A DNA stretch of 64,000 bases from a virus. Lineage: Duplodnaviria > Heunggongvirae > Uroviricota > Caudoviricetes. Below are positions 13,683 through 53,165 of the stretch, piece after piece. Under the pieces are notes generated by a model. That model was not told the origin of the DNA. It did no database searches and saw only the letters and a program-made list of their open reading frames with translations. The DNA lies in IMG/VR virus record IMGVR_UViG_3300028832_000001, positions 100,007 to 164,006 of that record. One strand, 5' to 3'. Position 1 is the first letter of the stretch. Each line of letters opens with the position of its first letter. The position numbers and the translations under genes were made by a program.

Positions 13683-13692
13683 GAGATAAAAA

Positions 13693-14942: not shown

Positions 14943-14945
14943 AAA

Positions 14946-14985: not shown

Positions 14986-14994
14986 ATTTTTAAA

Positions 14995-15933: not shown

Positions 15934-16051
15934 AGTATTTTCCTTAATTTTTATTATATTTATAAAAAATACGGATAAATGTAAAATTTTATTTACAATA
16001 ACCAGAAAATTTCTATATTTTATATGATATAATATAAATAGAATAAAAAAT

Positions 16052-17533: not shown

Positions 17534-17582
17534 ATATAAATATCATACACACAAACGTATAAACAAAAGTGAGGAATAAAAA

Positions 17583-24756: not shown

Positions 24757-24795
24757 GAAGAGAAGATTTCATATCTTCTCTTTTTATTATAAATA
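24757..24795 (+). promoter_or_regulatory. terminator hairpin (aagagaagat-ttcat-atcttctctt) followed by repeated element TTTTTATTATAAATAATGTA containing TATAAATA
   Basis: The same 20-nt string recurs at 35151-35170 after another terminator hairpin. TATAAATA is at 24788-24795, only 4 nt before the ATG. Confidence 0.4.
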
Positions 24796-30637: not shown

Positions 30638-30670
30638 TATATCGTTTCAGACAACATTAAATAAAAAGGG

Positions 30671-30699
30671 TTGACGGCAGTCACCCTTTTTGCTATATT
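30671..30699 (+). promoter_or_regulatory. sigma70-like promoter TTGAC-N18-TATATT embedded in conserved element AAAAAGGGTTGAC...CTTTTTGCTATATTTAGG
   Basis: -35 TTGAC at 30671-30675, spacer 18 nt, -10 TATATT at 30694-30699. An almost identical element recurs at 39083-39118. Confidence 0.5.
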
Positions 30700-31218: not shown

Positions 31219-32806
31219 TATGATCTACCCAATACTTATCGGAATTGCAGTAATTGCTTTAAGTATTCTCTTTTTTGCGTCTTATATCAAAGCCGCACCA
31301 GATGAAGTTAAAATCATCTCTGGTTTCCGACAACTAAGGACAATTATCGGACATTCAGGATTTAGAATTCCGTTCCTTGAGCAAGTCGATACTTTAAGCT
31401 TAAAGCTTATTCCAATCGATGTTAAGACCTCCGGTATTCCAACGTCAGATTATATTAATATCGCAGTTGATGCAGTCGTTCAGGTCAAAATTTCTGATGA
31501 AACTGCTGATATTAAGGTTGCTGCACAGAACTTCTTAAATAAGAATCCAGATGAAATTAAGAAGATGATTAGTGAAGTTCTTGAAGCAAACATGAGAGAG
31601 ATTGTTGGTCAAATGGAACTTGTCAAGCTTGTTAATGACAGACAACAGGTTTCTAAGAAGGTTCTCGAAAATGCTTCTCCAGACTTAAAGAAACTCGGTA
31701 TTGTTATTCAAACATTTAATATTCAGAACTTCTCTGATTCAGCAAAGGTTATTGAAAACCTCGGTGTTGACAAGGCAGTTGCAATTCAGAAAGCAGCAGC
31801 AATTTCTAGGGCCAATGCAGAAAGAGACGTTAAGATTGCTCAGGCAGAAGCAGCTAAGGAAGCAAACGATGCACAGGTTGCATCTAACCTCGAAATCGCA
31901 CAGAAGCAAAACGACTTAGAAGTTAAGAAGGCTGACCTTAAGAGAATTTCCGATAGCAAGAAGGCTGAAGCTGATGCCGCTTACGAAATTCAGAAGCAAG
32001 AACAGCAAAAGACCATTAACATTGCAGCTGCAGCAGCTGAAGTTGCAAAGCAGGAAAAACAGATTGAAATTCGTGAAAGAATGGTAGCTGTTAGACAGAA
32101 GGAACTCGAAGCTGAAATCCAGAAGAAGGCAGAAGCAGAAAAGCAAGCACAAATTCAGAAGTCTGATGCTGACCTTTATAGACAACAGAAGGAAGCTGAA
32201 GCAGCACTCTTCACACAGAAGCAACAGGCTGAAGCTATTAAGGCTAAGGCTGAAGCTGATAAGCAAAAAGCATTCGCTGAAGCTGCAGCAACTAAGGCTA
32301 AGGGTGAAGCAGAAGCTGATGCTGTAAAGGCTAAGGGTCTTGCAGAAGCAGCAGCACTTGACCAGAAGGCTGAAGCTATGAAGAAGTATGGTGATGCAGC
32401 AAGACAGGAAATGCAGCTCAGAACTATTGAAAAGTATTTCGAACAGTTACCAGCTATTGCAAGTGCCGTTGCAAAACCGATGGAAAAGATTGGCAATATC
32501 AATATGTATGGTGAAAGCGGTACAGCTAAGCTCACTGGCGATATTACCAAGACACTTACACAAGTTTCTAGTGGTTTAACTGATTCTCTTGGTATTGATC
32601 TTAAGACTGTTCTCGGTTCTATGTTCGGTGCACATCTTGCTGGACTCGAAAAGAAACCGTCGCAGGTCCCTGTTGAAGTTGCAAAGAACGATCCAGCAGT
32701 TCCAGCTACCCCAGCTCAGGCTACTCCAGTAGAATCTCCGGTTCAAATGTCTGAATCTGATATTGAACAGGCAGCAGCAGCATTTCTTAGAAAGCGTAAG
32801 CACTAA
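31208..32806 (+). CDS. flotillin-family SPFH protein (FloT/YuaG-like)
   Basis: N-terminal TM/hairpin helix, then an SPFH domain. A long Ala/Glu/Lys/Gln coiled-coil region (AEAEKQAQIQK...AEAIKAKAEADKQKAFAEAAATKAKGEAEADAVKAKGLAEAAA) is typical of the flotillin C-terminus. 532 aa. Confidence 0.7.
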   Translation: MTSNMIYPILIGIAVIALSILFFASYIKAAPDEVKIISGFRQLRTIIGHSGFRIPFLEQVDTLSLKLIPIDVKTSGIPTSDYINIAVDAVVQVKISDETADIKVAAQNFLNKNPDEIKKMISEVLEANMREIVGQMELVKLVNDRQQVSKKVLENASPDLKKLGIVIQTFNIQNFSDSAKVIENLGVDKAVAIQKAAAISRANAERDVKIAQAEAAKEANDAQVASNLEIAQKQNDLEVKKADLKRISDSKKAEADAAYEIQKQEQQKTINIAAAAAEVAKQEKQIEIRERMVAVRQKELEAEIQKKAEAEKQAQIQKSDADLYRQQKEAEAALFTQKQQAEAIKAKAEADKQKAFAEAAATKAKGEAEADAVKAKGLAEAAALDQKAEAMKKYGDAARQEMQLRTIEKYFEQLPAIASAVAKPMEKIGNINMYGESGTAKLTGDITKTLTQVSSGLTDSLGIDLKTVLGSMFGAHLAGLEKKPSQVPVEVAKNDPAVPATPAQATPVESPVQMSESDIEQAAAAFLRKRKH

Positions 32807-35128: not shown

Positions 35129-35165
35129 GAAACCGCTTTTAACAAGCGGTTTTTTATTATAAATA
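35129..35165 (+). promoter_or_regulatory. terminator hairpin (aaaccgctt-ttaaca-agcggttt) followed by second copy of TTTTTATTATAAATAATGTA element
   Basis: TATAAATA at 35158-35165, 7 nt before the ATG at 35173. The string is identical to 24781-24800. Confidence 0.4.
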
Positions 35166-35172: not shown

Positions 35173-35967
35173 ATGATAACTAATAAAACTGTATTTAATG
35201 TTAATCGTGTAGCAATACCATTCTCTAAGAAAGAATTAGAATCGGTAATCAATCAGAATGTAGTAAATGGGTATATTTCTACTACATATGATAATTTAAT
35301 ACAAACTTTGGAAGATATTTCCCGTTCTAAGGAATATCCAGTTGTATTAAATCCGAATGAAATTTTTACTTCATCTAATAATCCGTTAATTAGAAATGAC
35401 GTTTTGATTAGGGTTGAAGGTTTACAATCCTATGGTGAATTCATTAATAATGTTATAAGAGATAGCGAAGATGGTTATTGGACCGATTTTATGACTTATT
35501 CTGAATTATTCAAGGATGAAATCAAGAAAGTCAAAATACTTGCTTATAAGAAGTTTTTGTGGAATTATCATAATATTGATGAATGGTTTACGTCTAAGAA
35601 TATCGGTTTGATTGACGATGATAAGAATATGTTGGTTACTGATTTCCAGACATTTAAGGAAAGAGTTTTATTAACAGATGACTATGAAACCTTTATTGAT
35701 TCTTGTAAAACAGAAGATGTTGCTAACGCTATAAAATATATCATAAAGAAAGGTTGTGAAGTTTTACAAAAATATAAGGTTGAACTGAATAATCATATTG
35801 CGATTGATAATAAAAGACAGACAAATATAATTTTGAAGAATCCAATTATTACAAAGATATTCTTACAGTCTTCTGCTGCATCTCGTTGCAAGAAAGACTG
35901 GCCAAGAATTAAATTTACTACATTGGATAAGAAATCATTTGACACTATTGGTATTTGGGAAGTTTAA
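35173..35967 (+). CDS. hypothetical structural-module protein
   Basis: 264-aa ORF at the head of a co-directional late cluster. Confidence 0.35.
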   Translation: MITNKTVFNVNRVAIPFSKKELESVINQNVVNGYISTTYDNLIQTLEDISRSKEYPVVLNPNEIFTSSNNPLIRNDVLIRVEGLQSYGEFINNVIRDSEDGYWTDFMTYSELFKDEIKKVKILAYKKFLWNYHNIDEWFTSKNIGLIDDDKNMLVTDFQTFKERVLLTDDYETFIDSCKTEDVANAIKYIIKKGCEVLQKYKVELNNHIAIDNKRQTNIILKNPIITKIFLQSSAASRCKKDWPRIKFTTLDKKSFDTIGIWEV

Positions 35968-37268
35968 TTATGTCATTTAAAAAATCAGAAACTATTACAA
36001 AGGAAGGCGGATATAGAAAGTTTGATTCCGTCGAGGAAATGCAATCAGCTACTAACTGGTTTTTTAAATACATTACTTATAATGATGGAACTACTGAAGA
36101 GTGGACTCCAGGACATTTACCAAATAAAAATAAGAATGATTATCCACCTCCGCTTGGAGAAGTAACTGGAACGATCTTCTTAGATTCTTCTCCTGGTATC
36201 ATTTACATGACCAGTCTTATTGGTGATATTATCATCGATACGAAAGGTCCTGAATTTGTTTCTGAAGATGTTCAGTATGTAGTTATTGATTCTAACAGAA
36301 AGTGTAGCTTTACAATTAATTCTGATACGTTAATTGATGTTTGCCAATTAAGAATAAAATGTGGTGATGACGTTCTTTATGAATGTCTTAGAAAAGAAAC
36401 AGAACATACAATTTCTGAAAGTATTTCTAAACTATCTTATAATAAGACAGGAAATACTTATGTTTTGTCTTTTACATTAGATAAAAGCTATTCAGTTGAT
36501 AAACTTAATGAAGATCAGCTTAAGATTGAAGTCTGGGATATTGCAGCAAATAAAGCTGAATATACAACAGATGGAAAATGGGATTATATAACACTTGATG
36601 ATGATGAGAAAATCCAACATCTTATTATTGATTTTATTGATATTTATCCAAAAAATATGATTGTTTCAAAAAACATTGAAGGAAAAGTATTAGTTAGGGT
36701 TACTAATCCAAATAAGTTTTTATGGGCTTATCAACCGACAGTAAATTTATTTAATGATAGTATTGGTGTTATTGATGAATCAACATTAACATATTATGCA
36801 GATCAGGGAGTATTAACCTTTTATATTACACATATTAATAAGAAAGGAAATATCAATGTTGAAGCATGGATTGATGTTGATAATAATGAAATTAAAGAAT
36901 TTGTAAGAAATGCAACTTATGCTGATGCTACATTAGGACCATTTATATTTGCTGATGAAGGACGTAAGTATAAATTTAATTCTTATACTCCAGAATATCT
37001 TACTGACGAAATATATAAGGCATTTGTAAAATTTACAGAAGATTTCTTGAATACTTCGCAGGAAAGTTTGTCTACTGGAAATGCTGTAAGTACACTTGAA
37101 AAAATTGCTAGAATAAATAATTTTAATGACCCATTCAGAACAGAAACTCCTTTGCTTAGTGAATATGTAAAGCAGTTTAATATTGAAGTAAATCCAAATT
37201 TAAATGAATATGTATATTTCTTGGATGCAGCAAGAACTATAAAGGACAAGGAAACTGATGGAAATTAA
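35955..37268 (+). CDS. hypothetical structural-module protein
   Basis: 437-aa ORF overlapping its neighbours by a few nt. Confidence 0.35.
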   Translation: MGSLIMSFKKSETITKEGGYRKFDSVEEMQSATNWFFKYITYNDGTTEEWTPGHLPNKNKNDYPPPLGEVTGTIFLDSSPGIIYMTSLIGDIIIDTKGPEFVSEDVQYVVIDSNRKCSFTINSDTLIDVCQLRIKCGDDVLYECLRKETEHTISESISKLSYNKTGNTYVLSFTLDKSYSVDKLNEDQLKIEVWDIAANKAEYTTDGKWDYITLDDDEKIQHLIIDFIDIYPKNMIVSKNIEGKVLVRVTNPNKFLWAYQPTVNLFNDSIGVIDESTLTYYADQGVLTFYITHINKKGNINVEAWIDVDNNEIKEFVRNATYADATLGPFIFADEGRKYKFNSYTPEYLTDEIYKAFVKFTEDFLNTSQESLSTGNAVSTLEKIARINNFNDPFRTETPLLSEYVKQFNIEVNPNLNEYVYFLDAARTIKDKETDGN

Positions 37269-38577
37269 CGATTTACCACAACAATATAAAGACGAAGCAT
37301 ACAGACTTCTTCGTTCTATCTATAAGTTTATTCCTTATTATAACCAGATTAAAGGAACGTATCTTGGTATACAATTTATTTTAAATACCATGGGTTTATG
37401 TGCATCGATTGTCGAGCTTTGGGCAGCACCTAATAATATTACGAACTTTTCTGAAAATGCAGAATATTATAGAGAAGATGAAATCCATGCAGTTCGTAGA
37501 TTTACTGAAGATGTCGCAATGCATGCAGGAGTTAAAGATTATTATTTAACTTCTACATTTGATGTTGATTTGACTTCTCAAGCTGGCATTACATTTAAAG
37601 AATTTAACGGTATGGCTAAGACAATAATTACCGTTATTAATGAAGTTCGTCCAGTTACAAGATGTTTAAGAAAATTATATTACTTATTGCTTGTTAATTC
37701 AAATATTCATTTTGATTATTATTTTGAAAATCAAAAATCTCCTAATTTGGAATATGGTAATCCAGGTGTAGTTGGTGAAAATCCATATAATTTAGATTTT
37801 AGAAGATTTGACTATTTGTGGTATTGTTATAGAGATGAACCATTTAATAAATGTGAATATGATTTTAGATTAAAACAATTATCAAAAATATATTTACCTT
37901 ATGATGCATTAGGTGCTAGATTTACTCCAAATGGTGATGATTATACAACTGATAGCACTTATACAATGATTAATACTTATTTTAATCTAAATAAGTTAAA
38001 TGTAAAGTTAAGAAAATCGCAAGTAGAAAAATTTAGATTTAAGATTTTTATAAGACGTAGAGATAGGATTTTTGATATTCGTTCTACACCTGTTATAGAA
38101 GGAAATCTCGGAACTGATATTAGTATCAGTTTAGATCGTAACGGTATTTATATAAATTTATTAAATGCTGGTTTACAAACTGCATTAAATTTAGATGAGT
38201 TATTTTCTGATTTACGTCCATTACCAACACCAGCTGGGAAAAAAGGACAACTTGGTAATTATGATTTATTCATTGCGACTAATTTTATTATTGTCTTAGG
38301 AACTAATTACTTATTCCAAGATAAGGATATTTATGATTGGTCGCAGAATGCAGAAATTAACTTCTTATTAGACGAATACTGTGGATTAATTCCAGAAGCA
38401 TCGAGCTATGCTAGTGGTGTTCATCTTGCTTCTCAGCATAATGATGTATTGGTTGGTGAAGATATGTCTGAAGAAGATGATACTGAATATCCAGATGGAT
38501 TATTAACATATTCAGAAGATGATAATGATGATTCTGCATATATTACCACAGAAGACGGTGAATATATATATAGATAA
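37258..38577 (+). CDS. hypothetical structural-module protein
   Basis: 439-aa ORF with an acidic C-terminus. Confidence 0.35.
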   Translation: MEINDLPQQYKDEAYRLLRSIYKFIPYYNQIKGTYLGIQFILNTMGLCASIVELWAAPNNITNFSENAEYYREDEIHAVRRFTEDVAMHAGVKDYYLTSTFDVDLTSQAGITFKEFNGMAKTIITVINEVRPVTRCLRKLYYLLLVNSNIHFDYYFENQKSPNLEYGNPGVVGENPYNLDFRRFDYLWYCYRDEPFNKCEYDFRLKQLSKIYLPYDALGARFTPNGDDYTTDSTYTMINTYFNLNKLNVKLRKSQVEKFRFKIFIRRRDRIFDIRSTPVIEGNLGTDISISLDRNGIYINLLNAGLQTALNLDELFSDLRPLPTPAGKKGQLGNYDLFIATNFIIVLGTNYLFQDKDIYDWSQNAEINFLLDEYCGLIPEASSYASGVHLASQHNDVLVGEDMSEEDDTEYPDGLLTYSEDDNDDSAYITTEDGEYIYR

Positions 38578-38588
38578 AGAGAGGATTT

Positions 38589-39059
38589 ATGGCAAGAGCA
38601 AAAACACTTAAATTAAAAGCTGGAACTAATATTACATTGACAAAAGATGATACATCTGTAACAGTAGGATGTATTAGTGATGGTCCATCTGTTACTAATG
38701 AAAAAATCAAAATTTATGATATAAAAATTATAGCAGACCGGCAAGAATCAACAGGCTATCGTTTTGATGGTACGCCATCTGCAGAAGAATTAATATCTTT
38801 ATTGGTTGGTGATACTGGAGCTGGTAGTTTAGCAATATTAAGAGCTATAGAAGATGTCGGTGAAGGCATAAAAAATGAAAAATGGTATTATTTACAAGAT
38901 ATTAGTGGTTGGCATATTGAAATGCAGTCAAACATGTATGTTTTTACATTTATCCATACTAATGCAGTAACTAGTATTTCCCATGATGTTATTACATGTA
39001 ATGTTGGAAAAACTGGTGAAGGATATAGTACAGTATGGACACTATCACATATGCAATAA
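38589..39059 (+). CDS. hypothetical structural-module protein
   Basis: 156-aa ORF with SD gagaggatttATG. Confidence 0.35.
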   Translation: MARAKTLKLKAGTNITLTKDDTSVTVGCISDGPSVTNEKIKIYDIKIIADRQESTGYRFDGTPSAEELISLLVGDTGAGSLAILRAIEDVGEGIKNEKWYYLQDISGWHIEMQSNMYVFTFIHTNAVTSISHDVITCNVGKTGEGYSTVWTLSHMQ

Positions 39060-39089
39060 TTTAAAACAATAATATTACAATAAAAAGGG

Positions 39090-39118
39090 TTGACAAAAGT
39101 CAGCTCTTTTTCTATATT
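39090..39118 (+). promoter_or_regulatory. sigma70-like promoter TTGAC-N18-TATATT, second copy of the conserved AAAAAGGGTTGAC...TTTTTCTATATTTA element
   Basis: -35 at 39090-39094, -10 at 39113-39118. Shares the AAAAAGGGTTGAC prefix with the 30664 element. Confidence 0.5.
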
Positions 39119-39177
39119 TATTTAAATTAATTAGAAAACTATAAATATATAGAATTTTTAATAAGAAGGTAATAAAA

Positions 39178-42100
39178 ATGAAAAAGATAATCGGAATATT
39201 ATTAGTTTTAGCTGCATTTGTTTTTTCTGCAGACTATAAGCCGTTTAACTTTGAAACTATCCCACAAGATTCTGCAAGTCAACAGGATCAATTTGATTAT
39301 ATGCTTCAATATAAGTTATATGGTCATGATTTTATCAAAATGGGAAATGATGTTCGTATTCCAGACAAGTCAGGTTGGAATGGTACTGTAGGTAATATTA
39401 CTTCTAATGCAAGATTGACCTTGGGCGGTCCGATTCTTGCAAATGGTAGTATTTCTATGGGTGATGGTCCAAATAATATTACTGGACCAGTTCGCTCAGT
39501 CGATTTTGATCTTGGAAATGTAAATAATTCCAAAATCGCAAGCCCTGTTTGCTTAAGCGGAACCGCAAATGCTAATGCATTGTCTGCGATTGAAGATCAT
39601 AAGACTTATTCTTTCGATGCAAACATTTGTAAGGACAGCGTTCCTGCTGCACCTACAAATCTTTATATGCCGATTGTTGATTGGGATAATCTTGGTGCTG
39701 ATGTTAAGTTGGATGATATTGTTTTAAGTGGCAATGATGCTACAGATACTATTTTTGTTCCTAAAGGTGAAGGCGCATATAAGATTTTAATTGATAAGAT
39801 TCAGTTTGGCCTTGGCGGAACTAATGCAAGCCATTTGTATGTTAAGATGCAAGATGGCGGTAGATTGACCCAGATTTTCGTAAAGAATTTTATTTATGGA
39901 AATCATGCTACAATTCAGGTTGTTTATGATACTGACAGTGGAAGCGTAGTATTGAATCAGGACCAATATCGTGGTAACTTGATGTTCTATTCTAATAATG
40001 TTATCAGTTTTGATAATATGGACTATGCTCCTATTCAAGGTTCATTTATTTCTACTGATTCAATTTTCTTGGGAAGAAACGTTAATATTTCTGGTCAGTT
40101 ATTGACTAATAAGCTTGAAATTGGAAATGATATTGATGGTAAAAACTTCAGATTTGTTAAATTCGACCCTGATACAATCGATGTTAAGCTTGATAAGTAT
40201 GGTGGTTTGAGAGAAAATGATTCTACTGTTATTATTCCTATTGAACTAAGTGATACTGCTACTATCGCTGTATATTTTAGATATTGTTTTGATTTGAAAG
40301 ATGGTGTAACTGTTGAAGATTTTAATATTCCGCCTACATTCCCTATTTGTAACATCGATCAACCGAAAGAAGTATCTATTCCTATCGGTTCAAAGATTCC
40401 AAGTGATCCAATTAAGGTAAATGTTAAAGTCGATACATTGACAGAAAATGAATATCTTGTAATTAAGATTGATAGCATTTCTGGTGCTATTCTTCCTGAT
40501 GGTAAGACTGAAGGAGAATTAAAGATTAAGATTATTGACGCTCCTATTGGACATGTTGAATTTGATACTACAAAGACATATGAGTTTGAGGAAAATAAAC
40601 TTGGTGAAGTAGATGTAATCAAGATTTTAAATGGAACTGAAAATACTCGTTTCCATCTTGATAGTGCATATACTGATAGATATGAATTGGATAGCTTGAC
40701 TGGTAAGTTGACACTTATTGGTGAACCATTAGATTATGAAAAGGCTGCAATCGATGTTATTAAGGTTACATTGACTGATACTGGCAATGTAAGTGTAACT
40801 CGTAATATTCCTATTACAGTAATTGACGTTAATGAAGCACCTACTATCGATGATGTAACTGCTAATCTTCCGGAAAATCTTATTCATCCATTCATGGTTG
40901 AAAAGTTAGTTGCAAAAGATCCAGATACTAAGACAACATTTACTCAAAATGTTTTCAGTATGCTTGAAGGTGATACAAGCTTATTTAGAGTAGATTCTGA
41001 TGGTGAAATTTGGGCAAAGAAGACATTTGACTATGAAACTGATCAGAAAACCTATACTTTGAAGGTTTTGGTTCATGATAAGACTAATCCAGCATTGAAG
41101 GATAGTGCTATTGTTACTGTTAATATCACAAACAGCAATGATGGTCCTAAGTTTGACAGAAATGATACTACATTCCATGTAAATGAAAATGAACCATTTA
41201 AGGATAGTGTAAAGGCAACTGACCAGGATGGTGATAAGATTACTTATTCTATCATTGGAAGTGTTCCATTCAAAATTGATTCTACTGGCGTAATTACTTC
41301 TACTAGAACATTTGACTATGAAAAAGAAAAAGAATTTACATTCAAGGTCATTGCTGATGATGGTAAAGCAAAAGATACAATGACTGTAAATATTATAGTA
41401 GACAATGTAAATGAGCCTGTTCATACCAAAGATACAACTTTTGTTGTAGATGAAGGTAAAACTGGTGAAATCGGTAAAGTCAAAGGAGAAGATGAAGATG
41501 GAAAGCCTGTTAAATTTTCTTGCGATGATAGTGTGCATTACAGCATCGATACTAATACTGGTATTCTTAGACTGGTAGACCCATTTGACTATGAGATTAC
41601 AAAATCTGATACCATAAAGGTATTTGTTACTGATAGTCTATTTACAGATACTGCCATAGTTATTATTAATGTTAATAATGTAAATGAACCTCCTGTATTA
41701 CAGCCAAATGATTCTCTTACAGTTCCAGAAAATTGTAAGAATTGTATTGTTGGTATTATTACAGCAGTTGACCCTGACAGTGATAAGGTAATTTACGAAG
41801 TTAAGGAACCTGGTTTCACAATCGATACAAATGGAGTATTAAAGCTCACTGATCCTCTTGATTATGAGAAAACTCCAGAAGTTAAGATTACAGTTATTGC
41901 AAAGGATTCTAGTGGCGCAGCTGATACTGCCACCTATATAATTAAGATAACTGATATTAATGAACCAGTCCATGTTCAAGATACAACTTGTTCTGTAAAG
42001 GAAAATTATACTGGTAAGGTTTGCAAGATTACAGCAACTGATGAAGATAAAACAACTCCTAAATATATAATTACCGATACTACAAATTATTCTATCGATT

Positions 42101-43986
42101 CTACTGGTGTAATTACTATTAAGAACCCGATTGATTATGAAAAGAAGACTAAGGACACAGTAACTGTTATTGTAACTGATGACGAATTTTCTGATACCGC
42201 ACAGGTAATTATCAGAGTTCTCGATGAACCTGAAAAGGTTGAAATTACCACATGGGATGATGAAAAGCCTAAAGATACAGTAAAGACAAATGACCCAGAT
42301 CATAAGTTCGAATGGGAACTTTGTGAAGGTGATAGCTGTATTAAGCATGAAGAATTTCCGCATATCAAGAAAGATACAACTATCAAGGTATGTAATGATA
42401 AGAAGACTGTTTGTGATTCAGTTGTAGTTTTATTCAATGATGCACCTCCAGTTGTTACTTTGACAAATGCAAAGTCTACTGATGCATTGATTGACTATAT
42501 TACAATCGAAGAACAGAAGGACGATAAGATTTATGTCAACAAGAAAGAAAATCCAATTACTGTAACTGTTAGAGATACTGTTCATAAGACAGAAAAGAAA
42601 TTTGATATTAAAGTTAAGCTTGATACAATTCCTACTAAGGATATTAAGATTAAGGAATATAACTACTTGATTGATGAATCTCTTGCAACTCATACAGCAA
42701 TAGGTAACAATCTTATTGAAGTTTCTGAAGTTATTTCTGTTGACGGTAATAAGATAACAATTTCTAAGATTGTTGATAAGAAGACAATGGAACCAATCGA
42801 TACAGTTCAAACTGTTACTTATCATAAGAAGGTTGGTGGTAAGGACGTAGTTGTTTCTTATAAGACTGATAATCTTACTGGTCAGAGAGTTTCTGATTAT
42901 GAAATTTCTTACATGGCTGATTCTTGCACTAAGGTTACATATACTGTAAATGATAAGAAGGAAATTGTTAAGAATAAGGAAGGAAATATTGCATATAATA
43001 TCACTTATGATTATGTAGATGATTTTGGTAACAAAGCATCTGCATCAGTTGAAATTATCTTCGACGATATTCCGCCTAAGGTTGAAATTCTTGGACCTGG
43101 TCCAATGGAACATTTCAATACAAATGCAATTCCAGTTAAGTGGACAGTTAATGGCGAAACACAAGATACTTTGACATTACAGAGACTTGAAAAAGGTGTT
43201 AACTATATTATCAGAAGATATGTAGATAAGGCTGGTAACGTCGCTGCTGATACAGTCACAGTTCTTATGAATGAAGCCAAGGATATTGATATTGAAATTA
43301 TCAATCCAGTAACCAAGGTTGACCAGGATAAAGTTGATGAATATTATTCTGAAGGTCATAAGTATAATGATAAGAAACCGTTTGACGTCAAGTTTGTTGA
43401 CCCGAAGAACGATACAATTCCAGATGTAATTGGTGTTGGTTTCAAGGTTGATATTGTACTTCCGTCTGTTTCTCCTACTGGTTCTCTTGCAACATTGGAT
43501 GACATTGTAAAGAATGGTCAGATTCCAGTTGATGATAAGGGAAATATCGTTGGTGCTTCTACAAAGGGAATTCCAGTAGATAAGTATGTTGAAGAACATT
43601 GTACTGAAGAATTCCAGAAGGATTACGATAAGTATGGTTTGAATATTCCGCTTTATGACGTTACTTATAAACTTCATCTTTGGGTATATACAACTACTGC
43701 AAACTATGTAAATGATTTTAATATTGAATTTACATTGAATGATGAAGCTAAGACTACTACAGCAGGAACTGTCCAGATGGTTATCGACTGGTTGTCTGAT
43801 AAGGATGGAAACGTCAAGGCTAAGAACCATCATGCTTTAGGAACAGGCGCATATATAACCAAGTTGTTCAGCACTTCTGTTGCAAAACACCGTTGTGATT
43901 ATAAGGATCAAGTTAAGGGTGATAGAACTGTAAAGAAGGATGAAACAATGAAAACATTTGGTTATAAGCGACCAAACAACAAGTAA
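39178..43986 (+). CDS. giant secreted protein with multiple cadherin-like repeats
   Basis: Signal peptide (MKKIIGILLVLAAFVFSA). At least six domain junctions carry cadherin-type linker motifs (VIDVNEAPTI, NSNDGPKF, DNVNEPVHT, NVNEPPVL, DINEPVHV, LDEPEKV). Each is preceded by ...DYE(K/T)... blocks. 1602 aa. Confidence 0.6.
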   Translation: MKKIIGILLVLAAFVFSADYKPFNFETIPQDSASQQDQFDYMLQYKLYGHDFIKMGNDVRIPDKSGWNGTVGNITSNARLTLGGPILANGSISMGDGPNNITGPVRSVDFDLGNVNNSKIASPVCLSGTANANALSAIEDHKTYSFDANICKDSVPAAPTNLYMPIVDWDNLGADVKLDDIVLSGNDATDTIFVPKGEGAYKILIDKIQFGLGGTNASHLYVKMQDGGRLTQIFVKNFIYGNHATIQVVYDTDSGSVVLNQDQYRGNLMFYSNNVISFDNMDYAPIQGSFISTDSIFLGRNVNISGQLLTNKLEIGNDIDGKNFRFVKFDPDTIDVKLDKYGGLRENDSTVIIPIELSDTATIAVYFRYCFDLKDGVTVEDFNIPPTFPICNIDQPKEVSIPIGSKIPSDPIKVNVKVDTLTENEYLVIKIDSISGAILPDGKTEGELKIKIIDAPIGHVEFDTTKTYEFEENKLGEVDVIKILNGTENTRFHLDSAYTDRYELDSLTGKLTLIGEPLDYEKAAIDVIKVTLTDTGNVSVTRNIPITVIDVNEAPTIDDVTANLPENLIHPFMVEKLVAKDPDTKTTFTQNVFSMLEGDTSLFRVDSDGEIWAKKTFDYETDQKTYTLKVLVHDKTNPALKDSAIVTVNITNSNDGPKFDRNDTTFHVNENEPFKDSVKATDQDGDKITYSIIGSVPFKIDSTGVITSTRTFDYEKEKEFTFKVIADDGKAKDTMTVNIIVDNVNEPVHTKDTTFVVDEGKTGEIGKVKGEDEDGKPVKFSCDDSVHYSIDTNTGILRLVDPFDYEITKSDTIKVFVTDSLFTDTAIVIINVNNVNEPPVLQPNDSLTVPENCKNCIVGIITAVDPDSDKVIYEVKEPGFTIDTNGVLKLTDPLDYEKTPEVKITVIAKDSSGAADTATYIIKITDINEPVHVQDTTCSVKENYTGKVCKITATDEDKTTPKYIITDTTNYSIDSTGVITIKNPIDYEKKTKDTVTVIVTDDEFSDTAQVIIRVLDEPEKVEITTWDDEKPKDTVKTNDPDHKFEWELCEGDSCIKHEEFPHIKKDTTIKVCNDKKTVCDSVVVLFNDAPPVVTLTNAKSTDALIDYITIEEQKDDKIYVNKKENPITVTVRDTVHKTEKKFDIKVKLDTIPTKDIKIKEYNYLIDESLATHTAIGNNLIEVSEVISVDGNKITISKIVDKKTMEPIDTVQTVTYHKKVGGKDVVVSYKTDNLTGQRVSDYEISYMADSCTKVTYTVNDKKEIVKNKEGNIAYNITYDYVDDFGNKASASVEIIFDDIPPKVEILGPGPMEHFNTNAIPVKWTVNGETQDTLTLQRLEKGVNYIIRRYVDKAGNVAADTVTVLMNEAKDIDIEIINPVTKVDQDKVDEYYSEGHKYNDKKPFDVKFVDPKNDTIPDVIGVGFKVDIVLPSVSPTGSLATLDDIVKNGQIPVDDKGNIVGASTKGIPVDKYVEEHCTEEFQKDYDKYGLNIPLYDVTYKLHLWVYTTTANYVNDFNIEFTLNDEAKTTTAGTVQMVIDWLSDKDGNVKAKNHHALGTGAYITKLFSTSVAKHRCDYKDQVKGDRTVKKDETMKTFGYKRPNNK

Positions 43987-44044
43987 TAAATAAACCAGGA
44001 GTAAATCCTGGTTTTTTATTTTAGGGTTTACAACTAAAAAATAT

Positions 44045-44245
44045 TTGCTATATTATAATATTATGCAAAAAACAAAAATTGATATCGTAGTATTTGTAGT
44101 TATTTTTATTTTCGTATTTAGTTTAATGATATTTGGATGTAGTTCTGAAAGTTCTACTTCTCCTGAAGATATGTATCAGAAGTGTATTACTGTTAACGAA
44201 GAAAATCCAGATGCATGTGACCAAGAATTTACAATATATAAATGA
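44045..44245 (+). CDS. small membrane/secreted protein
   Basis: 66 aa. Hydrophobic N-terminus ending FGCSS (lipobox-like). Confidence 0.3.
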   Translation: MLYYNIMQKTKIDIVVFVVIFIFVFSLMIFGCSSESSTSPEDMYQKCITVNEENPDACDQEFTIYK

Positions 44246-44724
44246 ATTATTTAAAAACATATTTCGCAATTATTGCCAAAGCGGCAGGGAGAGAGCCATC
44301 GATATTATATGATAAGCATCATATAATTCCTCAGTCATTGGGTGGTCCAGACGTGCCTACGAACTGGATTTATTTAACCCCTAGGGAACATATGATTGCA
44401 CATCATTTGCTTGCCAGAGCTTATCCAGACGTCGAATTATTGCAGTCTGGATTTAACCTGAAGAAAGTCTGTATTAAGTATTATGACTATTATAGATGGT
44501 CTATGAGGTTAAAAGACTTAGCAGGTATGATAGAATATAGTAAGAATAAAAAAGAGATTGTAACGCGTTTAAGAGTGCTTCTGGACGCAATTGGTGATGT
44601 AGACCTAGATAAACATATTCCGGTAAAACAACAGCCTAATATGGTCAAATCTAAAGCACCAGCAGTTACTGAAAAAACTGAAAAAATAGAAACTAAAAAA
44701 GGAAAAAAGAAATGCAAAGAATAA
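44242..44724 (+). CDS. HNH endonuclease
   Basis: HHIIPQSLGGPDVPTNWIYLTPREHMIAHHLL is the HNH core (H-H...N...H..H). 160 aa with a Lys-rich C-terminus. Confidence 0.65.
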   Translation: MNYLKTYFAIIAKAAGREPSILYDKHHIIPQSLGGPDVPTNWIYLTPREHMIAHHLLARAYPDVELLQSGFNLKKVCIKYYDYYRWSMRLKDLAGMIEYSKNKKEIVTRLRVLLDAIGDVDLDKHIPVKQQPNMVKSKAPAVTEKTEKIETKKGKKKCKE

Positions 44725-44915
44725 TTGGAATCTTACTGTTACTATGTGGCATGTCATTTGCATGTTCACCCTTCTTCACTTCTGAATTTTGTAAGGAGAT
44801 AGATTTCTGGAATACTCAGTATTCTAGTTATCATTACAAATATTTTGAAATTTCTCCTAACTGGCTACTCTGGATTAACGGTTATCAAGCGTTTAATTTC
44901 ACGATTCGTTTCTAA
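44712..44915 (+). CDS. small lipoprotein-like ORF
   Basis: 67 aa. The N-terminus IIGILLLLCGMSFACS resembles a lipoprotein signal. Confidence 0.25.
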   Translation: MQRIIGILLLLCGMSFACSPFFTSEFCKEIDFWNTQYSSYHYKYFEISPNWLLWINGYQAFNFTIRF

Positions 44916-45188: not shown

Positions 45189-47660
45189 ATGATTAAAAAC
45201 GTAATTAAGCGAGATAATCGCAGACGAAAATTCAACATTGCAAAAGTATATACAGCCATAGAAAATGCATTTAAATCAATAAATGAAAAATATACAGAAG
45301 AAGGTATAGACCAATTAGTTGATGAAGTAGTCGAGAAGATTTCCGCAAATGATGCCAAGTCAGCAAGAGTTGAAGATATTCAGAATGTTATTGAAAAGAC
45401 ATTGATGAATAGCGGATTCGGAACAGTTGCTAAGGCATTTATTTTATATAGAGACGAACGTAACCGTGCACGTGAAACAAAATCAGAAATTGTAAAGACC
45501 ATTAAGGAAATTACAGAGTCTGATATTAAAAGTTCGAATATTTTAAGAGACAATGCAAACGAATCTGGTGCTACTCCTGCTGGAACATACGGTAAGATTG
45601 CATCTGAAACGAATAAGATGTATAACCTGTTGAATAACATCAACAGAAAGTATGCACAGGAACATAAGGACGGACATTTACATATCCATGACCTTAACCA
45701 GTATAATTTGACATTCAACTGCTTGTTTGCTCCAGTTGGAAAGTTATTGAAGAACGGTTTTGACTCTGGAACTGGTTTCTTACGTTCCCCGAAGTCAATC
45801 CAGACTGCAGCAGCATTGACAGCAGTTATTCTTCAGCTCCAGTCCAACCAGCAATATGGTGGTATCGCTGATGATAATCTCGATTTTGATTTAGCACCGT
45901 TTGTCGATATTTCATTTAGAAAGAATCTTAAGGAAGAATTAGAAAGATATATAGAATATAATCCAGATCATGAAGAAATGACCAATCTTGATGAAGTTGC
46001 AACAGCTTCTATGAACTGGCCTTCTGCACTTCTTTATACTAAGTTCCCTAAGATTTGTGTTATTAAGGCAATTCAGAAGACAGATGATGATACACATCAG
46101 GCTATGGAAGGTCTTATTGGTAATTTGAATTCTTTACAGTCTCGTTCTGGAAACCAAGTTCCATTTAGTTCTTTGAACTTCGGTCTTAATACTTCTAATT
46201 GTGGTCGTATGATTAGCAAGAATCTTATTAAGTCTCAGATGGAAGGTCTCGGTGACGGATTGACAGCAATTTTCCCAATCTTGATTTTCAAGTTGATGGA
46301 AGGTTACACAAAGAATCCAGAAGATCCTAACTATGATTTGTATCTCGACTCTATTAAGTGTCTTGCTCGTAGATTCTACCCGAACTTTGTAAAGGTCGAT
46401 AGTTCCTTCAATAAGCCATACATCAAGTATGAAACTAAGGAAGTTGAAATTCTTGAAAATGTTATTGGTGTTAAGGTTCGTGGTAAAGATGAAGCAACAA
46501 TTATCCCAATGCAAGACCAGAAGTTTGATAAGTTTGTCTATCAGTATGATGTAGGTCAAGGTGACTATTGGGAAATTGAAGAAATTTCTGGAAATAAGTT
46601 GAAGTTGAAGAAACTCATTGAAAATACAACTATTTCTACTATGGGTTGTAGAACCAGAGTTATTGGTAATATCAATGGTGCTGAACAGACAACTGGTAGA
46701 GGTAACTTTGCATTCCATACAATTAACCTTCCTAGACTTGCTATTGAAGCTCATATCGCAGCAAAGGATGAAGAAGAACGTAAGACTATTTTCTTCGAAA
46801 AGCTTGCTGAAATGCTTGAAGATGCAAAGGGAAGTTTGCTTGACAGATTCGCATTGATTTCTAACAAGACATATGAGAATTTCCCATTTACTATGCAACA
46901 GGGTCTTTATCTCACATCTGATGACCAACCGCATGAAGTTACTGATAAGATTGGTGAAGTTCTTAAACAGGCTTCGTTGTCAATCGGTTACGTCGGTCTT
47001 GCTGAAACCATGTTACTCTTGACAGGTAAGACTTATGGTGTTGACCATGAAATTGATGATTATGCTTTCTCTATTGTAAAGACTATTCGTGAATTTGTTG
47101 ATAAGACACAGAAGGAAACTCATTTGAACTGGTCTTGTTTCGCTACTCCAGCTGAAGCAGTTGCAGGTCGTTTTGCTAACATCGATAAAAATCTTTTCCA
47201 GAATGAAAAGAAGCTTGCTGATGTAGATTTACAGAGAGTCTTCGGTAAGGGTTATTACACAAATAGCCACATGCTTGATTATTCTTTGGAAACTACTCTT
47301 GAAAACAAGATTAAGATGGAAGCTCCATATCACAAGATTACAAATGCTGGTCATATCTTCTATTACAAGTTGAATGGTGACTTGTCTAAGAATCTTGAAG
47401 CGGTCAAGGCAACTATTGATGCCATGTATGAAGGTGACCTTGGTTATTTCACTTGCACATTTGACAGTGATACTTGTACTAAGTGCCATTTCCATGGAAT
47501 CATCAATAATGAATGTCCATGTTGTGGTAACAAGAATGAAGACGAGATTATTCGTGTTAGAAGAATTACCGGATATTTGACTGGTTCTCCTAAGAAGACT
47601 ATTTTTAAGTCTTGGAATGATGGAAAATTAGCAGAATTGAGAGACCGTCATAATATTTAA
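45189..47660 (+). CDS. nrdD: anaerobic ribonucleoside-triphosphate reductase (class III RNR)
   Basis: 823 aa. ATP-cone-like N-terminus (VIKRDNRRRKFNIAKV). C-terminal Zn-ribbon (CTKCHFHG...CPCCG). Glycyl-radical-type motif RVRRITGYLTG near the C-terminus. Confidence 0.85.
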   Translation: MIKNVIKRDNRRRKFNIAKVYTAIENAFKSINEKYTEEGIDQLVDEVVEKISANDAKSARVEDIQNVIEKTLMNSGFGTVAKAFILYRDERNRARETKSEIVKTIKEITESDIKSSNILRDNANESGATPAGTYGKIASETNKMYNLLNNINRKYAQEHKDGHLHIHDLNQYNLTFNCLFAPVGKLLKNGFDSGTGFLRSPKSIQTAAALTAVILQLQSNQQYGGIADDNLDFDLAPFVDISFRKNLKEELERYIEYNPDHEEMTNLDEVATASMNWPSALLYTKFPKICVIKAIQKTDDDTHQAMEGLIGNLNSLQSRSGNQVPFSSLNFGLNTSNCGRMISKNLIKSQMEGLGDGLTAIFPILIFKLMEGYTKNPEDPNYDLYLDSIKCLARRFYPNFVKVDSSFNKPYIKYETKEVEILENVIGVKVRGKDEATIIPMQDQKFDKFVYQYDVGQGDYWEIEEISGNKLKLKKLIENTTISTMGCRTRVIGNINGAEQTTGRGNFAFHTINLPRLAIEAHIAAKDEEERKTIFFEKLAEMLEDAKGSLLDRFALISNKTYENFPFTMQQGLYLTSDDQPHEVTDKIGEVLKQASLSIGYVGLAETMLLLTGKTYGVDHEIDDYAFSIVKTIREFVDKTQKETHLNWSCFATPAEAVAGRFANIDKNLFQNEKKLADVDLQRVFGKGYYTNSHMLDYSLETTLENKIKMEAPYHKITNAGHIFYYKLNGDLSKNLEAVKATIDAMYEGDLGYFTCTFDSDTCTKCHFHGIINNECPCCGNKNEDEIIRVRRITGYLTGSPKKTIFKSWNDGKLAELRDRHNI

Positions 47661-47734: not shown

Positions 47735-48028
47735 ATGTTAGATACTTTAATGTTAATCTGTGGTTTTTGTGGAGCTGGTGCTTTTGCAGTTTGTTCATTA
47801 CCACAAGTTATTAAAGCTTATAAAACTAAGTCGACAGGTGATATAAGTATTTTCTTTATTATCTTGTCAATTATCGGTAATTTATGTAGTGCTGCTTATA
47901 TATTCTATACTAATTATATAAGTGGAATGTGGCAATATCCGCAATATGTAAATTATACTTTGGCAACTATACTTATATTTATCCTTCTCGGGTTAAAACT
48001 AAAATATGATAAGGAAAATAAAAAATGA
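47735..48028 (+). CDS. SemiSWEET-like PQ-loop membrane protein (3-TM, ~97 aa)
   Basis: AFAVCSLPQVIKAYKTKSTGDISIFFIILSIIGN parallels the bacterial SemiSWEET core (FLPQV...TK.T.DIS). Three predicted TM helices. The start chosen is the ATG preceded by SD AAGGAAG; the ORF-track start at 47690 lies inside the nrdD terminator. Confidence 0.6.
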   Translation: MLDTLMLICGFCGAGAFAVCSLPQVIKAYKTKSTGDISIFFIILSIIGNLCSAAYIFYTNYISGMWQYPQYVNYTLATILIFILLGLKLKYDKENKK

Positions 48029-48684
48029 GTATAATGGATCTTATCGGTGTTCAAAGAGGAATTGATTTTGAACATAGTTTACCAACTGTAATGCGATATA
48101 AACCTGATATAAGAGAAGGTTATGAATATGGCAGTTTTGAACCTAAATATGGTCATACGCCAAATTGGCAACCTTTATGTAGTAATTCTTCAGACTTATA
48201 TAAAGAAATCGTTTTAGCATGTAAGCAGGTTGCAAAAGTTACAGAAATGAAAAATCCAATAGGTAATGATCCTTTTTGGCATCGTAGTGGACCTGAACGT
48301 GCAGGAACGATTGTTTCTAAGATAATACAGCTTTGTAATGATATTGCTATTGCTACTCGACAAGGTCAAGGCAATGTTATTGTATTAAATACTAAGATGT
48401 ATGATTTATTACGTGAGTTAACATTTGGTTTTATGGATTGCCCATTTATTTCTGAATCTGCTCCAGGCGTATTAAAGATTGTTGGAAGAGATGCTTTTAA
48501 AATGGATTTTGACGATTATTCAAATTATCCAGAAGCTATTATGACATATCATTCTAATAATTCGTGTGTATGTGGTGCTATTGCAGCACTTAGTCCTACC
48601 GAGACTTATTTTTCAATTAATACTGATATGGAAGGAACAGAGAATTATTATAGACTTTTAAGGGTAAAAGATGAATTACAGTAA
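48025..48684 (+). CDS. hypothetical protein, paralog A of a ~220-aa pair flanking nrdG
   Basis: 219 aa. Shares with 49152..49823 an N-terminal DLIGVQRG / DLIKVQKKDG block, a central ...V..I.....P.....E.R.G..L........A..T.R..G.ILIN...Y.LL.EL... block and a C-terminal YYRL block. Confidence 0.45.
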   Translation: MSIMDLIGVQRGIDFEHSLPTVMRYKPDIREGYEYGSFEPKYGHTPNWQPLCSNSSDLYKEIVLACKQVAKVTEMKNPIGNDPFWHRSGPERAGTIVSKIIQLCNDIAIATRQGQGNVIVLNTKMYDLLRELTFGFMDCPFISESAPGVLKIVGRDAFKMDFDDYSNYPEAIMTYHSNNSCVCGAIAALSPTETYFSINTDMEGTENYYRLLRVKDELQ

Positions 48685-49183
48685 AATTGATCCAATGAGT
48701 ATTGTCGATGGTGACGGTTGTCGAGTAACACTTTTTGTTTCAGGTTGTAGAAATCATTGTAAAGGGTGTTTTAATCCAGAAACATGGAATTTTGACTATG
48801 GTCAACCATATACAGAAATTACAGAAAATGAAATTATTGAAGCCTGTAAGAAATCATATATTGCTGGGTTAACTGTTCTTGGTGGAGAACCAATGGAAAA
48901 AGAAAACCAAGCAGAAATTTATAAACTCATTACTAATTTCAAACGTGCATATCCTGGTAAAAATGTTTGGTTATTTACTGGTTATATTTATGAAAAAGAT
49001 TTATTAGAAGGTCAGCGTCAAAATATAAATGGGTTAACTTCTTCTTTATTAGAAATGGTTGATATTCTGGTTGACGGACCATTTATTCTTGAACAGAGAG
49101 ATTTGAATTTAAAGTTTAGGGGAAGCACGAATCAAAGGCTATTAACAAGAGATGAAAGACAAAGGTTACAAAATGACAATTAA
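48671..49183 (+). CDS. nrdG: anaerobic RNR activating enzyme (radical SAM)
   Basis: CRNHCKGC (CxxxCxxC) after DGDGCRVTLFVSGC. LTVLGGEP follows. 170 aa, immediately after the nrdD neighbourhood. Confidence 0.8.
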   Translation: MNYSKIDPMSIVDGDGCRVTLFVSGCRNHCKGCFNPETWNFDYGQPYTEITENEIIEACKKSYIAGLTVLGGEPMEKENQAEIYKLITNFKRAYPGKNVWLFTGYIYEKDLLEGQRQNINGLTSSLLEMVDILVDGPFILEQRDLNLKFRGSTNQRLLTRDERQRLQNDN

Positions 49184-49823
49184 AGACTTAATTAAAGTCC
49201 AGAAGAAAGACGGATTATTTAAAAACTGTGCATCCGTTTTAAGATATATTCCAAGAGAACTATTATTCGATGGTAGAGAAGCTGACCGTCCAGAATTAAC
49301 ATTGGGTCTTGAAAGACAACTTATCCATGAAAAAGATTGGAAAGATGCAAGTGATGAAAGTAAGAAAGAATTAGATGTAATTCATGCATGTATGGATGTT
49401 GCTAATGTTATTGAAATTCACAAAGATCCAGAGTCTACTGCTTCTAAAGAAGAACGTTGTGGTGTATTGTTGACTAATTTAATGAAGGAATGTAATTCTA
49501 TTAGAACAAGTACTCGCCGTTGTGCAGGTAATTATATTCTTATCAATAATGCATTTAAGAAAGAATTAGAAGAACTTGGTGCATTTTCAACTCCATTTAT
49601 TAATGTTTCAACTGATAACACTGAATATCTTGTTAATGGTGTTATTAAAATGAGTGTTGCAACATTTGATGAAGATACACCAATGGCATTAATCGGATAT
49701 TCTGGAACTAGTAGGTTTGATGGTGGAATCGTTTTAGCAGAAGACGAAGAAAATAATAAGTATGCGATTGCTGACCGATTCTACGATAGTGATAAGTATT
49801 ATAGATTAATTAAACTTGTATAG
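49152..49823 (+). CDS. hypothetical protein, paralog B of the ~220-aa pair
   Basis: 223 aa. Paralogous to 48025..48684 (see that entry). Ends ...DKYYRLIKLV. Confidence 0.45.
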   Translation: MKDKGYKMTIKDLIKVQKKDGLFKNCASVLRYIPRELLFDGREADRPELTLGLERQLIHEKDWKDASDESKKELDVIHACMDVANVIEIHKDPESTASKEERCGVLLTNLMKECNSIRTSTRRCAGNYILINNAFKKELEELGAFSTPFINVSTDNTEYLVNGVIKMSVATFDEDTPMALIGYSGTSRFDGGIVLAEDEENNKYAIADRFYDSDKYYRLIKLV

Positions 49824-53115: not shown

Positions 53116-53165
53116 TATTTATAAGATAAAAACAGATTATATCCGATTATTTTGAGTTATAAATA
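53116..53165. promoter_or_regulatory. divergent pair of T4-late-type TATAAATA motifs (53116-53123 minus; 53158-53165 plus)
   Basis: Each lies 19-24 nt upstream of its gene start, driving the paralog operon leftward and the 1128-aa fiber operon rightward. Confidence 0.4.

Follow-up and report, generated by a model that had tools for sequence, protein, structure and literature searches.

A cadherin-repeat protein of a T4-like phage related to giant surface proteins of Fibrobacter

The gene described here occupies 39178..43986 on the plus strand of the window, by which we mean the whole stretch of 64,000 nucleotides (nt) that was analysed (positions 100,007 to 164,006 of IMG/VR record IMGVR_UViG_3300028832_000001). 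It is a complete open reading frame (ORF) with an ATG start, encoding 1602 amino acids (aa) followed by a stop codon, and its product is a cadherin-repeat surface protein of a T4-like phage of ~400 kb. Because this protein is a phage copy of a giant Fibrobacter surface protein, the surface of the infected cell is most likely altered rather than the phage particle decorated. We consider it probable that the gene is of host origin and that its auxiliary product is exported to the envelope of an infected Fibrobacter cell, where it would serve as an adhesin or surface remodeller. No second copy or paralog of the gene is present within the window.

Domain architecture and cellular relatives

The first 17 residues, MKKIIGILLVLAAFVFS (39178..39228, plus strand), precede the mature start ADYKP and consist of a basic n-region, a hydrophobic core of 13 residues and small residues at -3 and -1, a layout that classes them, on sequence grounds, as a cleavable Sec-type signal peptide. 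A motif search found no lipobox in this signal peptide, and in a hydrophobicity scan it was the sole strongly hydrophobic segment of the 1602-aa protein. The signal peptide is conserved across all homologs, as is the mature start AD(V/Y)KPF, and it appears in the predicted structure as a low-confidence helix. Direct reading of the sequence placed a Shine-Dalgarno-like AAGAAGG (39163..39169, plus strand) 8 nt 5' of the ATG. The whole protein is acidic, with an isoelectric point (pI) of 4.7 and values of 4.5 to 5.2 for the domains other than a basic tail. An earlier analysis that saw only the letters of the DNA (the sequence-only reading) had described a secreted 1602-aa product, and both the ORF and the conserved signal peptide agree with that description.

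Six tandem extracellular cadherin (EC) repeats fill aa 456-1017 (40543..42228, plus strand), as delimited by Pfam, self-alignment and motifs. The Pfam Cadherin model (PF00028) matched the protein in 5 stretches at E=1.5e-42 and 144.4 bits, against a cut-off of 28.8 bits, and self-alignment resolved exactly six repeats of 87 to 102 aa (456-555, 556-657, 658-748, 749-839, 840-930 and 931-1017). The motifs xE(N/G) and (F/L/I)DYE are present in all six, DxD is present in EC2-6, and five inter-repeat linkers have the form D/N-x-N-E/D-x-P. Across 30 homologs, the positions of the Ca2+-ligand motifs are nearly invariant. When PDB sequences were searched with phmmer, the closest solved structures were CELSR1, protocadherins and cadherin-23 (CDH23), with E values down to 2e-28. 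By profile score and motif content, these are genuine cadherin repeats, far beyond chance, and their motifs predict Ca2+ binding and stiffening of the linkers. The sequence-only reading had counted at least six modules separated by cadherin-like Ca2+ linkers; the number is exactly six, and the Pfam result is a true Cadherin match, not merely one to generic immunoglobulin (Ig)-like folds.

The metazoan cadherins CELSR1, PCDH19 and CDH23 share with the window protein PF00028 repeats carrying xEx, DxD, DRE-like and DxNDN-like Ca2+ motifs. However, the window protein has DYE for DRE and DxNExP for DxNDN, lacks a transmembrane segment and a cytoplasmic tail, and combines its repeats with a beta-solenoid head and with a signal peptide and C-terminal module of bacterial type. 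Among 50,697 phage genomes, the only tblastn match of the protein was to the record of the Brevundimonas jumbo phage vB_BpoS-Gurke (ON529850.1), whose 'putative protocadherin protein' is 24.8% identical over the EC repeats (E=7e-9). This match is confined to the repeats, or 27% of the query, and does not extend to the head or the C-terminal module; the phage also infects a host of another phylum.

The repeats are preceded by a hypervariable N-terminal beta-solenoid head (aa 18-335, 39229..40182, plus strand) and a Calx-beta-like beta-sandwich (aa 336-455, 40183..40542, plus strand). In its predicted structure, the head is a right-handed beta-solenoid of the IBP-1 type found in DUF3494 ice-binding proteins, and the structures that match it best are those of ice-binding proteins and ComZ rather than tapirins. 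The DUF3494 protein SfIBP_1 likewise joins Ig-like domains to an IBP-1 fold. At the sequence level, however, there is no match to these proteins, and ice binding would be useless to a rumen organism. A search with aa 18-331 matched no Pfam family at E<=10, DUF3494 (PF11999) included, and when the head, Calx-like, C-terminal and tail segments were searched separately, neither Pfam nor NCBIfam returned a significant family; DUF3494, Calx-beta, CHU_C and the C-terminal domain (CTD) of type IX secretion system (T9SS) cargo were all absent. The tapirins of Caldicellulosiruptor are surface adhesins for cellulose and have no cadherin stalk.

Profile searching assigned aa 1018-1602 (42229..43983, plus strand) to a C-terminal module, a string of beta-sandwich domains that defines the family and is common to the Fibrobacter proteins. 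Its 585 aa were modelled with moderate confidence only, at a predicted local distance difference test (pLDDT) score of 63.6. When 1.84 billion representative proteins were searched with a profile built from the last 590 aa, 841 clusters matched, 164 of them below 1e-30. The module forms the exact C-terminus in 299 of 366 proteins and ends within 3 residues of it in 347; the proteins bearing it span 1300-3300 aa. Its final part (aa 1501-1602, 43678..43983, plus strand) is a basic domain with an invariant FGYKRP motif and a short basic tail, presumed to be a sorting or anchoring signal. The last ~100 residues end in KTFGYKRPNNK, and phage and Fibrobacter members alike carry the FGYKRP tail. At pI 9.2, the last 90-100 aa stand out on an otherwise acidic, Sec-type protein; the fold of this part was only moderately modelled and fold searches with it were unspecific. 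For surface enzymes of Fibrobacter, basic C-terminal domains have been suggested to act as type IX secretion and anchoring signals (PMC6851124).

Established sorting signals were sought in this region. C-terminal segments of 101, 130 and 201 aa from the window protein had no Pfam or NCBIfam match at E<=10, the T9SS CTD models of type A (TIGR04183/PF18962) and type B (TIGR04131/PF13585) included, and the last 130 aa of seven other members (six of cellular type, two of these from named Fibrobacter, and the phage-contig protein P0129) had none in NCBIfam. Regular-expression searches of the window protein found no LPXTG or PEP-CTERM motif and no GGxGxD repeats of the repeats-in-toxin (RTX) type, and a C-terminal hydrophobic segment is also absent. 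As in the RTX adhesins LapA and MpIBP and the T9SS cargo SprB, a Ca2+-stiffened repeat 'extender' would hold a ligand-binding region off the cell. However, the protein has a Sec signal peptide instead of the C-terminal signal of type I secretion, has no RTX repeats, and differs from SprB in a tail that matches no T9SS CTD model. The window protein is neither Hoc-like nor an RTX adhesin; it is not anchored by sortase, and it is not demonstrably a cargo of type IX secretion.

All matches of the C-terminal profile with a named source come from Fibrobacter or Fibrobacteraceae, among them the cultured isolates UWEL, UWB5, UWB10 and UWB12. The family consists of giant 'cadherin repeat domain-containing proteins', unnamed and uncharacterised, such as WP_109734111.1 (unclassified Fibrobacter), the UWEL homolog (P0212), SMP51724.1 (UWB10) and MCF0215355.1. 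By BLASTP, residues 8-~500 and 518-1602 of the window protein align at ~32% identity with MCF0215355.1, encoded in a metagenome-assembled genome (MAG) of Fibrobacteraceae, and this homology is collinear through signal peptide, head, repeats and FGYKRP tail. Phage and cellular proteins share a signal peptide with an AD-V-x-P mature start, a solenoid head that is hypervariable in both, a Calx-like domain, PF00028 repeats, a module of ~590 aa and the FGYKRP tail. The head itself matches 279 of the fetched family proteins, and in close pairs of cellular orthologs it is 44% identical, compared with 84-90% for the base.

Phage and cellular copies also differ. The phage copies are 1343-2012 aa long, whereas the Fibrobacter proteins are mostly 1.8-3.3 kaa; they form a separate clade, are only ~32-40% identical to the cellular proteins, have phage GC content, and lie among phage genes instead of at the recA locus. 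The cellular gene follows recA-cinA-DUF5683-His_Phos_1 in four independent genomes. In three of the four (UWEL and two assemblies), it is followed by SUI1-FecR-beta-helix, while the fourth, a 334-kb contig, shares the upstream half only. The window gene is not at this recA-linked locus, being flanked by phage genes of unknown function and by an HNH/NrdD block. By locus and phylogeny, it is a phage-borne branch of the Fibrobacter family and not an ortholog at the cellular locus. In one Fibrobacteraceae MAG (L011), three tandem cadherin paralogs are followed directly by a GH10 gene (15962-17599). A 318-kDa 'cadherin domain protein' of F. succinogenes S85, FSU_2932, has a signal peptide, is predicted to reside in the outer membrane and was found in cell envelopes during growth on cellulose only (PMC4619616).

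Phage relatives, divergence and transcription signals

More than 100 full-length homologs of the window protein, at 65-99% identity, were found on contigs of up to 424 kb, and 36 IMG/VR viral contigs, including ones of 411 and 424 kb, carry the gene. The environment of these relatives is the ruminant gut and plant fibre. Labels used below include L002, the 424.5-kb contig of ERZ27256977; L005, the goat duodenum contig JAFQXD010000042.1, binned as Methanobrevibacter; and L014, a phage-like contig of SRR21150908 from a more distant phage. When the last 360 aa were compared in a neighbour-joining tree, the short phage-type proteins grouped in a single clade, apart from a second that holds the named Fibrobacter proteins. 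The GC content of the cadherin gene is 33.7%, compared with 32% for the phage and 43-52% for Fibrobacter loci. This phage-like composition, together with the separate clade, argues for a long-resident phage gene and not a recent capture.

Copies in GTDB lie on phage contigs of ruminant MAGs (L003-L008) that were binned as Prevotella, Fibrobacter, Methanobrevibacter, Clostridia and Rickettsiales, and one copy is named a Methanobrevibacter protein at NCBI. These labels reflect mis-binning, that is, contamination of public MAGs by jumbo phages. Since the bins are unrelated to one another, binning gives no host.

Divergence is concentrated in the head. Among 100 six-repeat members, its mean pairwise identity is 54%, compared with 71-85% for every other domain; the number of EC repeats in phage-type proteins ranges from 4 to 10 and is six in 102 of 121. 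The gene also far outpaces its neighbours in divergence. Genes flanking it in L005 share 96-99% identity with those of the window (89% for g37258), compared with 84% for the cadherin gene; in L045, L046 and L051, identity is 97-98% for HNH and NrdD but 53-63% for the cadherin gene. L005 additionally retains a 115-aa remnant of the 3' end of a window-type cadherin gene, closer to the window tail (80% identity) than to the cadherin gene of L005 itself (59%). The remnant sits behind a 4.5-kb insertion (11965-16238) downstream of the cadherin gene that encodes two lipoproteins and a 703-aa signal-peptide protein with Cys-rich repeats and a ...TYRF end resembling the terminus of outer-membrane proteins. 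From its sequence, the remnant is a scar of recombination, or cassette (allele) replacement, at the locus. A recent swap of heads from host to phage was considered and rejected; the best presumed cellular head is ~40% identical, source names being absent from these long proteins.

The family extends to a more distant T4-like phage of 27% GC, L014, which encodes a 1343-aa member (6843-12533). A His_Phos_1 gene lies ~1 kb upstream of that gene, with a CoaE-like ORF between them, and a gene of the same His_Phos_1 family directly precedes the Fibrobacter chromosomal gene. In L002, a GH10 xylanase gene (5893-7686) encoding a lipoprotein-like signal peptide lies 4 kb upstream of the cadherin gene. 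The proximity of GH10 in this phage relative and in the Fibrobacteraceae MAG could stem from joint capture or from a role connected with fibre degradation.

Upstream of the window gene, a hairpin of the form AAAAAGGGTTGAC-aaaa-GTCAGCTC-TTTTT (39082..39111, plus strand) resembles a terminator for the preceding gene and carries in its left arm the -35 hexamer of a sigma70-type promoter-like sequence, TTGACA-17 nt-TATATT (39090..39118, plus strand; 11/12 matches). The extended sigma70-like pattern occurs 5 times in the window, compared with 0.32 expected. A second copy of the element, AAAAAGGGTTGAC-ggca-GTCACCC-TTTTT-gc-TATATT (30664..30699, plus strand), lies 5' of an NfeD-like gene and a flotillin gene. 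The elements at 30664-30699 and 39082-39118 are near-identical, flanked by A5/T5, and the only two copies in the window; both hairpins look as though they double as terminator and -35 carrier. The sequence-only reading had noticed the near-identity of the two promoters, which holds, and co-regulation of the cadherin gene with the flotillin operon is plausible from it. A further terminator-like hairpin with a T-run (43992..44014, plus strand) directly follows the stop codon, and by these signals the cadherin gene is a separate transcription unit with its own promoter and terminator.

The stand-alone character claimed by the sequence-only reading is therefore upheld, but its 'early-type' label is not established, because a TATAAATA box, the octamer of T4 late promoters, also lies upstream (39140..39147, plus strand), 30 nt 5' of the ATG. 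The octamer occurs 27 times in the window, compared with 14.8 expected, and 21 of these copies are intergenic, although only ~6% of the DNA is. In 18 of the 27, it lies at most 80 nt 5' of the start of a gene on the same strand, including helicase, NrdD and tail genes. Examples are found at 2345-2352 and 3916-3923 on the minus strand and at 13200-13207, 16033-16040, 24788-24795, 35158-35165 and 53158-53165 on the plus strand. Several copies are only 4-7 nt 5' of an ATG, which implies leaderless or near-leaderless transcripts.

Proposed role and competing explanations

We propose that the gene would be transcribed in the infected cell from its host-type sigma70 promoter and probably also from the phage TATAAATA-type promoter. 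The N-terminal signal peptide would direct export by Sec, and the C-terminal module with its basic FGYKRP tail, being of host-like design, would be expected to take the host route to the cell surface and to be retained there. From what is known of cadherin structures, the six Ca2+-stiffened EC repeats would form a stalk of ~25-30 nm, presenting the Calx-beta domain and the hypervariable beta-solenoid head at its tip. The head would then bind a partner outside the cell, presumably a variable one, such as a surface molecule of another cell or a phage receptor-binding protein, and not invariant cellulose; a variable partner is favoured over an invariant polysaccharide because the head evolves fastest in phage and host copies alike. 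The benefit to the phage could be a remodelled adhesive surface that keeps the cell in a fibre-attached, host-dense community, or a host cadherin masked or mimicked against superinfection. The genomic context is one of envelope functions, with the NfeD and flotillin genes under the same promoter hairpin, lipoprotein ORFs nearby and, in relatives, an exported GH10 enzyme and a secreted Cys-rich protein. The tie to envelope-directed functions drawn by the sequence-only reading is supported.

Phage genes that alter host surfaces are already known. Like morons, exclusion lipoproteins such as Llp of T5 and Cor, and PblA/PblB of S. mitis phage SM1, the window gene has its own promoter and terminator, and its product would act at the host envelope and change adhesion or receptor properties. 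However, these known proteins are small lipoproteins or virion proteins reused as adhesins, and a shortened version of a giant cadherin-type host protein is not among them. Within the literature and databases searched, such a shortened, fast-evolving copy across a phage clade of ~400 kb has not been described, and no literature linking cadherin proteins to megaphages or jumbo phages was found. A survey of the pig gut predicts a family of jumbo phages that targets Fibrobacterota (PMC12826114).

Several points weigh against an envelope protein of infected Fibrobacter. The host is deduced from homology alone, and the phage GC of 32% is far under the 43-52% of Fibrobacter. The head resembles tapirins and ice-binding proteins in modelled structure alone; the C-terminal module was modelled too poorly to fix its fold (pLDDT 63.6), with generic beta-sandwich matches only from fold searches; and the tail matched no T9SS CTD, LPXTG, PEP-CTERM or RTX signal. 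The T4-late-type TATAAATA box upstream of the gene makes co-synthesis with virion proteins possible, and a variable tip on a stalk of variable length is, by analogy, also the design of phage receptor-binding fibres. FSU_2932 is no more than a candidate member of the family of the window protein.

Superinfection exclusion or receptor mimicry would place the protein at the same location for another purpose. A short phage version occupying the surface sites of the host cadherin would mask, displace or decoy a phage receptor, so that the infected cell would be guarded from further infection or progeny would not be lost on cell debris. We regard this as unlikely, although it fits the variability best: the head is hypervariable in phage copies and host orthologs, suggesting an arms race with a variable partner, and the gene is 53-84% identical between phages whose flanks are 97-99% identical. 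The conserved C-terminal anchoring module implies competition for the same sites, a host-type promoter would permit expression right after infection, and the phage copies are the shortest of the family. However, a receptor role of the host cadherin protein is purely supposed, the ~40% identity of the best presumed cellular head speaks against recent exchange between host and phage, and an adhesin of 1600 aa would be atypical of exclusion proteins, those known being for the most part small lipoproteins or proteins of the inner membrane. Less probable still is a metabolic role, in which the head binds cellulose or xylan as tapirins do and the extra adhesin, with GH10 in relatives, feeds the infected cell during a long jumbo-phage cycle. 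A GH10 gene lying 4 kb away in L002 and immediately behind the cadherin paralogs of the Fibrobacteraceae genome is in keeping with such a role, as are the tapirin-like fold of the head and the S85 cadherin-domain protein, a candidate family member restricted to cellulose-grown envelopes (PMC4619616). An invariant ligand would, however, leave unexplained why the head is the most variable domain (54%), its top structural matches lie elsewhere, as described above, and a search with the head segment found no carbohydrate-binding module (CBM) or Pfam match.

A virion-associated adhesin, either a Hoc-like capsid decoration or a fibre tethering particles to plant fibre, mucus or host cells, is improbable. 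Many phage decorations and fibres contain Ig-like and cadherin-like repeats, and a cultured jumbo phage, Gurke, has its annotated 'putative protocadherin protein'. The T4-late-type TATAAATA box 30 nt upstream, the resemblance of a variable tip and variable stalk length to receptor-binding proteins, and the uncharacterised upstream genes (35173-39059), which could be structural, would also accord with a place on the particle. Like Hoc and other Ig-like decorations implicated in 'bacteriophage adherence to mucus', the window protein has repeated beta-sandwich modules, belongs to a T4-like phage and might confer weak adhesion. In contrast to the window protein, Hoc has a capsid-binding domain and no signal peptide; the window protein has a homolog on a host chromosome along its full length. 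A cleavable-type signal peptide would take the protein out of the cytoplasm, where tailed-phage particles are assembled, and the homology to chromosomal Fibrobacter proteins spans both this signal peptide and the C-terminal tail. PHROGs yielded no structural family; the one match, at E=0.021, was to a functionally uncharacterised family of 56 positions. Nearby genes serve replication, nucleotide metabolism and the membrane, the upstream block does not stay linked to the gene in relatives, and the TATAAATA box, found also 5' of the helicase and NrdD genes, is not confined to structural genes. The particle decoration with mucus adherence that had been suggested for this gene is not supported, given the conserved signal peptide, the lack of a PHROG structural match, the full-length Fibrobacter homology and a setting of ruminant gut and fibre instead of the mucosal model.

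In a further reading, which we put forward tentatively and with more doubt than confidence, the protein is a miniature of the core, recA-linked Fibrobacter cadherin, captured by a clade of ~400-kb rumen phages and shown on infected cells to mimic, mask or jam the host protein. If so, and with the same reserve, the tip of the host cadherin might owe its fast evolution to being where contact is made in an arms race or during strain recognition. The phage protein would then act as a receptor mimic of the cadherin type, with control over superinfection or over adhesion between cells and of cells to fibre, in a major rumen cellulose degrader.

Fibrobacter is a key degrader of cellulose in ruminants, and its adhesion to fibre is poorly understood. 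The relationship described here ties an uncharacterised, hypervariable family of Fibrobacter cadherins to a large clade of uncultured jumbo phages, gives that clade a homology-based host assignment and identifies a candidate surface interface of phage and host. With 1602 aa and six repeats, the window protein is a compact form that should be easier to express and study than host proteins of 2000-3300 aa. Should adhesion or superinfection be altered by the phage copy, the gene would represent a new class of auxiliary gene, acting through adhesion or receptor mimicry and not metabolism, with relevance to fibre digestion.

Neighbouring genes in the window

The window is T4-like phage DNA, encoding a tail-sheath stabiliser, UvsX, a gp32-like single-stranded DNA-binding protein, DnaB, a helicase, anaerobic NrdD and NrdG, and several homing endonucleases. 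Its TerL fragment is nearest to those of T4-like cyano- and pelagimyophages, at 41-43% identity. The TerL gene looks interrupted, with a homing-endonuclease-like ORF at 3952-4959 followed by an ORF at 4925-5845 that matches the C-terminal part of TerL only; its N-terminal ATPase part was not located. Megablast of the region against the 50,697 phage genomes found no relatives at the DNA level.

The NfeD-like membrane protein gene (30727-31218, plus strand) lies 5' of the flotillin gene (31208-32806, plus strand), which encodes 532 aa with Band_7 and Flot domains. A phage flotillin is unusual in itself. In L002, a flotillin gene (16276-17853) lies ~1.5 kb downstream of the cadherin gene, with two small ORFs between them. 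Just upstream of the cadherin gene in the window, the genes at 35173-39059 (264, 437, 439 and 156 aa) are conserved in the clade, but their adjacency to the cadherin gene is not constant; they had no match in PHROGs, Pfam, PDB sequences or the 50,697 phage genomes.

Downstream of the cadherin gene is a unit (44027..44915, plus strand) with a TTTACA-16-TATATT promoter-like site. It contains a 60-aa ORF (44063-44245, plus strand) and a 67-aa ORF (44712-44915, plus strand), each matching the lipobox pattern, and an HNH homing endonuclease gene (PHROG 655; 44242-44724, plus strand) wedged between the two and overlapping both. The sequence-only reading had noted two tiny lipoprotein-like ORFs following the gene. 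Their lipobox patterns stand, but they are split by the HNH gene and accompany the cadherin gene in its nearest relatives only. With linkage inconsistent among relatives, a role of these ORFs as obligate partners was rejected. In other relatives, the same HNH endonuclease (97-98% identity) lies directly between the cadherin gene and NrdD, and the lipoprotein ORFs are absent.

Farther downstream, two paralogous ORFs of ~220 aa (48025-48684 and 49152-49823) stand on either side of the NrdG-like activase gene and are 27% identical to each other's L001 counterparts; the ORF at 49152-49823 shows a weak match to major-head-protein families (Gp23, PHROG 138). The NrdD protein of the window (45189-47660, 823 aa) is ~23% identical to the positional NrdD of L002 (18110-20284, 724 aa), whereas neighbouring genes are 56-80% identical, which suggests a swap for a different type of NrdD.

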